From the NCBI RefSeq assembly GCF_003334255.1, contig NZ_QOWU01000026.1: a DNA stretch of 63,217 nucleotides; one strand, given 5' to 3'. The notes beneath the pieces are model-generated. The model was not told the DNA's origin. It did no database searches and saw only the letters and a program-made list of their open reading frames with translations. This document shows, piece after piece, positions 52,656 to 53,668 of the stretch. Source of the stretch: Escherichia coli (GTDB lineage: Bacteria; Pseudomonadota; Gammaproteobacteria; Enterobacterales; Enterobacteriaceae). Made by a program: the position numbers and the translations under genes. Within the stretch, counting starts at the first letter, position 1; each line of letters starts with the position of its first letter.

Positions 52656-53369
52656 TCAATCAAAAGTCTCATCATTCCACTGCGACTTGATGACCTTTCC
52701 GACAAACTGGCAGTTTTCGTTACACTCAATCATCTCGAATCGTGGGTTGAGCGGCTCCAGGTACGCTTTACCGCTCTCACGAATGAATCGTTTGAAGGTA
52801 AATTCATCGCCGTTCATTCGGGCCACGCAAAAATCGCCATCCTCGATTTCCCGTTCAGGGTCAACGAGTATCAGCATACCTTCAGGGAAGCTGGGTTTAC
52901 CACCCTGCGGTGCGGTCATTGAATGCCCCTTGACCTCCAGCCAGAACGACCTGTCACTGGCTTTTGTGGTGGTGGAGATCCATTTAATCGCATCTTTTGC
53001 GGTGTACGAAATATCATCCATTGAGAATGCGCCAGCTTGTACGCAGGAGAGTAACGGATATTCGTAAGCGGGGACACGAGTTAATGGCTCTTCAATTGCG
53101 AGCGCCATTTCTGCAATAGATTTTGCCAGGCTGGGACTGAAATCACCAACCTTTACATTCAGTATCTTAGCAAGCTGTGCTGCGTGGCTGGCATTTATGG
53201 CGTTGATGCCAGCCATTAGCTGATTAACAGCGCTTTGAGTAACACCTAATTCATAGGCTAATGACTCCTGAGATAAGCCTAACTCTTTCTTTTTCGCGTT
53301 AAAAATACTTTTCAGACGCTTAGCATCTTCCAGTTGTTCAGGGGTTAACGGTTTCTTTTTCATGTTCAT
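52656..53369 (-). CDS. cI: Lambda CI-like repressor (HTH plus S24 LexA-like autopeptidase)
   Basis: 237 aa; [51 protein letters not shown]... and ..[31 protein letters not shown].. closely parallel lambda CI. Confidence 0.9.
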
Positions 53370-53464
53370 ACCATATCACCTTTGGTTATATTTATTGAAA
53401 TATCAGCGGTGTTGACATTTTAATAACTGTGCGTAATGATATGGGCATTTTGAAGGAGTCAGTT
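53370..53464. promoter_or_regulatory. Divergent cI/cro promoter-operator region (oR/pR/pRM equivalent)
   Basis: 95-bp AT-rich intergenic region with TATCACC-type half sites and TTGACA-like -35. Confidence 0.6.
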
Positions 53465-53668
53465 ATGGCGATGAAAAAAGAGACCCTGGCTGATTACGTA
53501 TACAGGTTCGGTCAGAAGAAAGCCGCTAAGGACTTTGGTGTGGCGCAGAGCGCGATCAGTAAAGCGCTTCTCGTCGGACGTGAAATTTACGTCAAAACCT
53601 TTGATGACGGCAGAGTTGAGGCGGAAGAGGTTCGACCGTTCCCTGCGTTCGTAAGAGGCGATGATTAA
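53465..53668 (+). CDS. cro: Cro-like repressor
   Basis: ORF 53429..53668; start at [35 protein letters not shown]... with GGAG SD; parallels lambda Cro. Confidence 0.85.

Follow-up and report, generated by a model that had tools for sequence, protein, structure and literature searches.

In a 63,217-nucleotide stretch of Escherichia coli DNA (NCBI RefSeq assembly GCF_003334255.1, contig NZ_QOWU01000026.1), here called the window, positions 52656 to 53668 hold a repressor gene, cI, and a divergently transcribed cro gene with a short spacer between them. This region is very probably the immunity switch of an Eru1-type lambdoid prophage that resembles TL-2011c and P13374 and is without stx, and its core is very probably homologous to the lambda switch, though diverged from it. 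The immunity module is ordinary and has already been catalogued and published. No operator or promoter map of the Eru1 module was found in the searchable literature, including the published descriptions of the module, and the added value of the present analysis is limited to such an explicit map together with a list of the lambda elements that are absent.

The CI protein of the window can be aligned to lambda CI without a gap, with 145 of 237 residues identical (61%). The lambda CI, Cro and operator annotation for this and all following comparisons was taken from NC_001416. The identity amounts to 62% in the N-terminal domain, 38% in the linker and 69% in the C-terminal domain. A structure search returned the intact lambda repressor (3bdn, E = 5e-92) followed by the structures of the lambda domains, and the N-terminal domain matches PDB entries 1lmb and 1lli with E about 1e-27. 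Pfam places HTH_3 at residues 27-76 (E = 1.5e-9) and Peptidase_S24 at residues 105-227 (E = 1e-28). In the gapless alignment, the Ala111-Gly112 cleavage site and the catalytic residues Ser149 and Lys192 (lambda numbering) are identical to those of lambda CI. Based on its domains and catalytic residues, CI is predicted to be a self-cleaving repressor of the LexA/lambda-CI type. Residues kept in common with lambda include Gln33, Gln44, Ser45, Ile54, Asn55 and Lys3-5, and the substitutions include G46A, G48N, A49Q, N52A, Y22F, N61H and D38Y. The recognition helix reads QSAVNQLMA compared to QSGVGALFN in lambda, with four of its first nine residues reported as changed. In the activation patch Glu34 is kept, Asp38 is replaced by Tyr, and a Glu is found at position 39; E34 and D38 of lambda CI contact region 4 of sigma (PMC1874639).

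The Cro protein has 34 of 66 residues identical to lambda Cro (52%), rising to about 60% when only the 57 aligned residues of the core are counted. It matches PF09048 over all 59 positions of the model (1-59, E = 3.4e-33), and the structure search returned lambda Cro (5cro, 1cop and 6cro, E about 5e-16). Both searches point to a member of the lambda Cro family (Pfam PF09048). Gln27, Ser28, Lys32 and Arg38 are kept, and Tyr26, Asn31, Ile34 and His35 are altered with respect to lambda. The roles of these Cro residues are known from structural work on lambda. The cro start at 53465 is preceded by an AAGGAG Shine-Dalgarno sequence, the Pfam Cro model begins at residue 3 of the protein, and in an identical E. 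coli genome the NCBI Prokaryotic Genome Annotation Pipeline (PGAP) has also placed the start there. With this start codon, the spacer between the two genes extends from 53370 to 53464, or 95 bp. The initial annotation had described, by eye, a CI with a helix-turn-helix and an S24 autopeptidase, a Cro close to that of lambda, and an operator region of 95 bp between the two genes. The domains, the gene coordinates and the spacer were all correct as judged by Pfam, the open reading frames and the PGAP start, and the formal alignments did not return the low identity that would have spoken against a lambda-like pair. Three antisense open reading frames within cI and cro (52635-52922, 52687-53067 and 53459-53770) gave no PHROG match.

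The spacer with its edges (53352-53476) aligns by MAFFT to lambda 37929-38052 with a single 1-bp gap, which falls between the positions of lambda OR3 and OR2, and the global identity over the right operator (OR) region is 64 of 110 columns. The three putative operators (Table 1) are consequently spaced by 24 bp (OR3-OR2) and 24 bp (OR2-OR1), compared to 23 and 24 bp in lambda. A weight matrix trained solely on the six lambda operators was scanned over the whole window, and the 24/24 triplet starting at 53374 ranked first of 63,153 positions both by the sum and by the minimum of its scores. The OR3 candidate TATCACCTTTGGTTATA is the best dyad of the spacer and the sole match with zero mismatches to TATMACCNNNGGTKATA in the 63-kb window; from the sequence, its assignment appears unambiguous. 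OR1 belongs to the top-ranked triplet whichever register is used for OR2. The operator search proposed in the initial annotation for 53370..53464 was therefore productive, and a lambda-type OR of three operators, phased at about 24 bp and overlapping the promoters PR and PRM, is predicted between the divergent cI and cro genes.

The putative rightward promoter PR scored 10/12 in a promoter scan and aligns column for column with lambda PR, whose -35 and -10 hexamers are TTGACT and GATAAT, with the cro ATG codons also aligned. The resulting cro leader of 18 nt, which contains the AAGGAG, is equal in length to that of lambda. On the opposite strand, OR3 shares 2 bp with the proposed -10 hexamer of the repressor maintenance promoter PRM, as in lambda. 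The edge of OR3 is 11 bp from 53363, and the same distance separates lambda OR3 (37951) from the cI start and PRM +1 (37940). The lambda PRM +1 coincides with the A of the cI ATG, and in the window position 53363 is the site of a second in-frame ATG, Met3. By analogy, a leaderless PRM message beginning at Met3 would encode MKKKPLT..., with the three-lysine arm retained. Met1, at 53369, adds six coding bases toward OR3 in comparison with lambda cI and is preceded by AGGTG, which is Shine-Dalgarno-like; it could serve for the translation of longer transcripts, such as one driven by an alternative -10 sequence, TATAAC, inside OR3.

A second operator array is predicted over a leftward early promoter at 51946-51995, about 0.7 kb past the end of cI. 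The PL-like promoter (TTTACA-17-TATATT, 10/12 in the scan) aligns with lambda PL, and this PL/OL stretch is conserved at 98% in P13374. The candidate OL1 has two mismatches in the operator-pattern search and a lambda-matrix score of 13.2, ranking second in the window; its center is 17 bp upstream of the proposed PL start, the same as in lambda. The pair at 51955 and 51979 ranks first of 63,177 among pairs spaced by 24 bp with the lambda-only matrix. The stretch opposite lambda OL3 showed no resemblance to an operator in the alignment, so that OL appears to be a two-site array. The initial annotation had placed a left operator near 52420..52450 instead. The lambda matrix gives none of the 17-mers there a positive score, and the stretch is a deletion junction with respect to P13374.

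About 75 nt past the proposed PL start there is an exact rrn-type boxA, TGCTCTTTAACAA, the only exact copy in the window and on the strand of the PL transcript; it is present although the Eru1 phage type is reported to be without N protein. Small hairpins are located just upstream of this boxA, for example GCCCT-TACAC-AGGGC at 51917-31. An Rfam scan of 49000-59500 gave no match in OR, OL or the PL leader, returning only sRNA-Xcc1 and sok; an additional MIR394 match is the hairpin distal to cI and was judged to be due to chance.

Table 1. Features of the cI-OR-cro region, the leftward operator array and their surroundings in the window. Operators, promoters and transcription starts are predicted.
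Feature	Position	Strand	Sequence, elements or basis
cI repressor gene	52656..53369	-	237 residues from Met1 at 53369; open reading frame, lambda CI identity, Pfam, PDB
cro gene	53465..53668	+	67 residues; lambda Cro identity, PF09048, PDB, PGAP start
Putative OR3-equivalent operator	53374..53390		TATCACCTTTGGTTATA; aligns with annotated lambda OR3
Putative OR2-equivalent operator	53398..53414		AAATATCAGCGGTGTTG; aligns with annotated lambda OR2
Putative OR1-equivalent operator	53422..53438		AATAACTGTGCGTAATG; aligns with annotated lambda OR1; overlaps PR -10
PR-like promoter	53412..53447	+	-35 TTGACA 53412-17, -10 AATGAT 53435-40, inferred +1 A at 53447
Inferred PRM	53363..53375	-	-10 TATGGT (53375 to 53370), +1 at 53363, the A of the Met3 ATG; lambda geometry
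PL-like promoter	51946..51981	-	-35 TTTACA 51981-76, -10 TATATT 51958-53, inferred +1 at 51946
Putative OL1-equivalent operator	51955..51971		TATAACTTGCGGTGATT; two mismatches in operator-pattern search; aligns with lambda OL1
Putative OL2-equivalent operator	51979..51995		AAATACCGTTGGTGGTT; 24 bp from OL1; aligns with lambda OL2
Exact rrn-type boxA	51861..51873	-	TGCTCTTTAACAA; about 75 nt past inferred PL start
Perfect 19-bp hairpin	52601..52642	-	14 nt past cI stop; no U-tract
BsuBI/PstI-type restriction endonuclease remnant	52124..52426	-	C-terminal 100 residues; phrog_1639 positions 740-838 of 838; PGAP name
Ant-like gene	49989-50621	-	downstream of PL, on PL strand
BRO-N protein gene, Ant-like	42775-43557	-	downstream of PL, on PL strand
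ant promoter-like site	50867 to 50838	-	TTGACA-18-TATATT, 11/12

The assignment to the Eru1 type comes from comparison with phage and bacterial genomes. Over 52400-53800 the DNA shows 99.9% identity to Escherichia phage PhiR12_3, and from 52601 on it is 97-98% identical to P13374, TL-2011c, VT2phi_272, PA2, PA8, Ss-VASD and dozens of phages converting to Shiga toxin (Stx) type 2a. Altogether 98 phage records match the cI-OR-cro module at 97-99.9% DNA identity, and the module was found in 147 of 5,426 complete E. coli genomes, chromosomal every time. Thus TL-2011c (phi734), P13374, VT2phi_272, PA2/PA8 and the non-Stx phage PhiR12_3 share the module of the window, and the CI protein is 99.6-100% identical across phages of the TL-2011c/P13374 group. 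The CI of TL-2011c has been named the "Eru1 repressor", its Cro was described as 62% identical to lambda Cro, and Eru1 phages were reported to be without O, P, N, CII and CIII (Llarena et al. 2021, PMC8044961). A later study (Fagerlund et al. 2022, PMC8951638) assigned the repressor to CI clade II and linked it to Eru1. One published description proposes that Eru1 phages are perhaps not lambdoid at all.

The OR of the window differs from the majority form of the module by three bases, at 53392, 53395 and 53405, the last of them in OR2. The likeness to P13374 extends to the same helicase and primase replication genes to the right of the switch, while the window does not have the pair of methylase and BsuBI/PstI endonuclease genes located after cI in P13374. 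The first genes of the PL operon (50277-51685) are unlike those of related phages. The prophages of E. coli G1/2 and PhiR12_3, which elsewhere are 99.6-99.99% identical to the window, also diverge from it over this 1.4-kb segment. In the window the segment contains, as the first gene after PL, a gene for a 183-residue signal-peptide protein (50890-51441; PHROG 19473, unknown function), and the divergence includes a different N-terminal part of Ant.

The flanks of the switch depart from lambda. The perfect hairpin behind cI has a folding energy of -40.3 kcal/mol (z = -5.6), and its left edge is exactly the homology breakpoint with P13374; it is possibly an RNA end, a stabilizer or a processing site between cI and a downstream cargo slot. 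The restriction endonuclease remnant occupies the position of lambda rexAB. In P13374 the full methylase and endonuclease genes are located there, whereas in the window about 2.1 kb has been replaced by 160 bp of unrelated DNA, and 52124-52600 is decayed defense cargo. On the other side, the gene after cro (53699-53992, plus strand) belongs to PHROG 852, a family of unknown function, has a very basic C-terminal half, and gave no Pfam or NCBIfam match. A role as a cII analogue was considered and rejected; one GenBank record carries the label "CII" for it, which the Pfam, NCBIfam and PHROG searches did not support. Beyond it there are a second protein of unknown function, a helicase, a primase-like protein and DUF1367. 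No CII-type TTGC-N6-TTGC site was found on the cI strand behind cro, and neither a cII-like protein nor rexAB was found around the switch. The early region is therefore not the canonical lambdoid one with N/nut, cIII, rexAB, cII and the establishment promoter PRE, and O/P. The description of the locus in the initial annotation as closely parallel to lambda holds for the cI-OR-cro core and for PL/OL; it does not extend to rexAB, a cII-like protein and a CII-type PRE site, none of which was found, or to replication, where helicase and primase genes are found.

Three further loci of the prophage were recorded. Just past the Q antiterminator gene, a sok antisense RNA (58719-58893, plus strand, 118 bits) accompanies a hok gene. 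HsdM- and HsdS-like genes (59394-62509, plus strand) are at the position of stx2 in related phages. A RelE/ParE toxin and HigA antitoxin (42053-42732, plus strand) are encoded amid the early-left Ant-like genes, on the opposite strand.

By analogy with lambda, CI dimers in the lysogen would occupy OR1, OR2 and OR3 and keep PR off, with the dimer at OR2 adjoining the leftward cI promoter as it does in lambda; CI would also bind OL1 and OL2 over the PL-like promoter. Upon DNA damage, activated RecA would lead CI to cut itself at the Ala-Gly bond by means of the Ser/Lys pair. PR and PL would then open, and Cro, translated from the message with the 18-nt leader, would bind the same operators and turn cI off. 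CI binding, the promoter starts, cooperativity, PRM activation and the leaderless start at Met3 are all inferred here from the lambda precedent. Because the cleavage site and the catalytic pair are intact, induction is expected to proceed by RecA-stimulated self-cleavage. The published behavior of the phage type is mixed. Induction by mitomycin C or H2O2 in the native host is described in the Eru1 literature, and two Eru1 phages, as lysogens in C600, gave 1e7-8e8 phage/ml whether or not mitomycin C was added (PMC8044961). The release in C600 shows that leaky repression occurs in some hosts at least.

The initial annotation had also suggested that antirepressor genes offer alternative induction routes. 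The two Ant-like genes are downstream of PL, and no convincing LexA box was found at either of them; the number of box-like matches (20, with 18 expected) is that of chance. A Gifsy-type antirepressor route under SOS control is thus unsupported. The first ant gene is preceded by its own strong promoter-like site (Table 1), then a short hairpin with a T-run, and then a full-length match to sRNA-Xcc1 (RF02221, 50753-50665, 69.5 bits) immediately before the ATG of ant at 50621. Such an arrangement suggests an RNA-based leader controlling the antirepressor, and an independent, possibly RNA-based, control of ant is possible. A lambda-matrix match at 50842 within the ant promoter breaks the A2/A5/C6 half-site pattern and was treated as a chance match.

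Several observations weigh against a lambda-type switch with three right operators that responds to SOS induction. A 27/21 spacing combination ties with the 24/24 one, which leaves the register of OR2 ambiguous by 3 bp; the alternative is located rightward, at 53401-53417 (TATCAGCGGTGTTGACA). The single-site scores of OR1 and OR2 with the lambda matrix are 3.7 and 5.3, compared to 15-22 for real lambda operators, and a matrix trained on the proposed sites themselves gives equal scores to unrelated sites elsewhere in the window. Operator-like 17-mers are not enriched window-wide (9 found, 5.6 expected), so the case is carried by position, phasing and homology. In the searchable literature, no data on binding, footprints or transcripts were found for the module. 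The change of Asp38 to Tyr in the activation patch means that PRM activation may differ from that of lambda, and since the C600 lysogens release phage equally without mitomycin C, the switch may not be cleanly gated by SOS. The weak single-site scores and the spacing tie would be explained if only OR3 and OL1 were real, with OR1, OR2 and OL2 being relics, chance matches or sites shifted by 3 bp (53401-17, 53425-41 and 51982-98), and with a logic unlike the three-site cooperativity of lambda. Each of the shifted registers does hold one very good half-site (TATCAGC, TATCATT and GATAACC). However, among the eight combinations of registers the information content is greatest (8.18 bits) for the lambda-homologous one; all 10 of its half-sites have A2 and A5 and 9 have C6, and the promoter-operator distances of lambda are matched at both PR and PL. 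Variation among 22 related IMG/VR loci also bears on this point. Of the ten variable positions in the spacer, eight are in none of the three operators. At 53405, where an A/T polymorphism is common, the affected base is the central position 8 of the half-site in the lambda register; in the shifted register it would be position 5. We consider this alternative unlikely. Our own first picks for OR2 (53401), OR1 (53425) and OL2 (51982), made by the best single half-site, were dropped for the lambda-homologous register, with OR2 still ambiguous. At the other extreme, operators of the same specificity as those of lambda would make the prophage homoimmune with lambda. The consensus half-site TATCACC is present in the left half of OR3, and CI Gln44, Ser45, Asn55 and the lysine arm are kept together with Cro Gln27, Ser28, Lys32 and Arg38. 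Nevertheless, the five operators score from 3.7 to 13.2, so that even the best is below the lowest lambda site (lambda range 15.2-22.1), the C4 of every lambda half-site is not constant here, and four residues of the CI recognition helix as well as Cro Asn31, Ile34 and His35 are changed. Homoimmunity is accordingly very unlikely, and neither by matrix scores nor by the CI helix does the region have the lambda-equivalent operators and recognition helices of imm-lambda. With C4 lost and all five sites scoring below every lambda site, the operator specificity is probably related to that of lambda and yet distinct.

Two further explanations concern how, and whether, the switch works. An antirepressor that inactivates CI, in the manner of Gifsy or of P22 immI, could be the main driver of induction in place of self-cleavage. 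The presence of the Ant-like genes, the separate promoter-like site and sRNA-Xcc1-type leader of the first of them, and the mitomycin C-independent release published for Eru1 phages are consistent with such a route. On the other hand, every residue for self-cleavage is kept in CI, neither ant gene has a LexA box, and both are on the PL strand downstream of PL and would be expressed after derepression, not before. We regard an antirepressor-driven switch as quite improbable. The SOS-dependent induction expected in the initial annotation agrees with the complete set of cleavage residues, but it accounts for only part of the published behavior, given the C600 lysogens. The cargo beside cI is degraded, with a restriction-enzyme fragment left and the methylase lost, as it might be if the region were a non-functional relic of a decayed prophage, and the window stops short of the late genes, which limits any judgment of completeness. 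A relic is hardly credible given that cI and cro are intact, with 99.6-100% protein identity to the inducible, plaque-forming TL-2011c and P13374, that the module is 99.9% identical in the complete phage genome PhiR12_3, and that the promoters and Shine-Dalgarno sequences are intact. An Eru1-type immunity switch with a diverged lambda core therefore remains our preferred reading.

The repressor/Cro pair of this type controls the release of Stx2a in the phage type linked to severe outbreaks (O104:H4 in 2011, O103:H25 in 2006). Since the core of the switch is a close structural copy of that of lambda and explicit coordinates can now be given, the reported instability of the lysogens is open to experiment. 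It is conceivable, although we would not expect it, that the switch is a stripped-down lambda switch and that one or more of its losses account for the spontaneous release of Eru1 Stx2a phages, which is reported to be higher by roughly eight logs. The losses meant by this tentative proposal are the absence of OL3, of CII/PRE and of N, the degenerate OR1 and OR2, the change of Asp38 to Tyr, and possibly a leaderless cI message starting at Met3. Each element has an exact lambda counterpart, so the hypothesis can be tested element by element.

We have compared the switch with that of lambda and with those of other Stx phages. The likeness to lambda consists of the 24-bp spacing of OR2-OR1 and of OL1-OL2, the 17-bp distance from OR1 to PR and from OL1 to PL, the identity of CI (61%) and Cro (52%) with no internal gaps, and the same cleavage site and catalytic pair. 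The differences are the absence of OL3, rexAB, a cII-like protein and a CII-type PRE site, the changed recognition helices, the replacement of Asp38 by Tyr with a Glu next to it, and the OR3-OR2 spacing of 24 instead of 23 bp. Among the Stx phages, 933W retains N, cII, cIII, O and P. Its switch reportedly combines three operators in OR with only two in OL, and the release of toxin is controlled by a cleavable CI. The 933W CI is only 19% identical to the Eru1 repressor (PMC8044961).

Of the Stx-phage repressors, the clade I CI of phages such as 2851/1717 (Stx2c, Eru2/3) has been described as nearest to that of lambda, with 61% identity (PMC8951638). In our comparison the CI of phage 2851, which like that of the window is a LexA-type repressor with an S24 domain, has 154 of 237 residues identical to lambda CI. 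It is a mosaic, with a C-terminal domain virtually identical to that of lambda and a DNA-binding domain unrelated to lambda's, and the published value of 61% reflects this mosaic structure. The reverse case was found in IMG/VR, where the CI of locus L024, 69% identical to that of the window, combines a window-type C-terminal domain with an unrelated N-terminal domain, cro and OR. Domain exchange at the linker explains both mosaics. The CI of the window is lambda-like evenly in both domains, and hence only the window type shares with lambda the lineage of the DNA-binding domain, the type of Cro and the layout of the operators.

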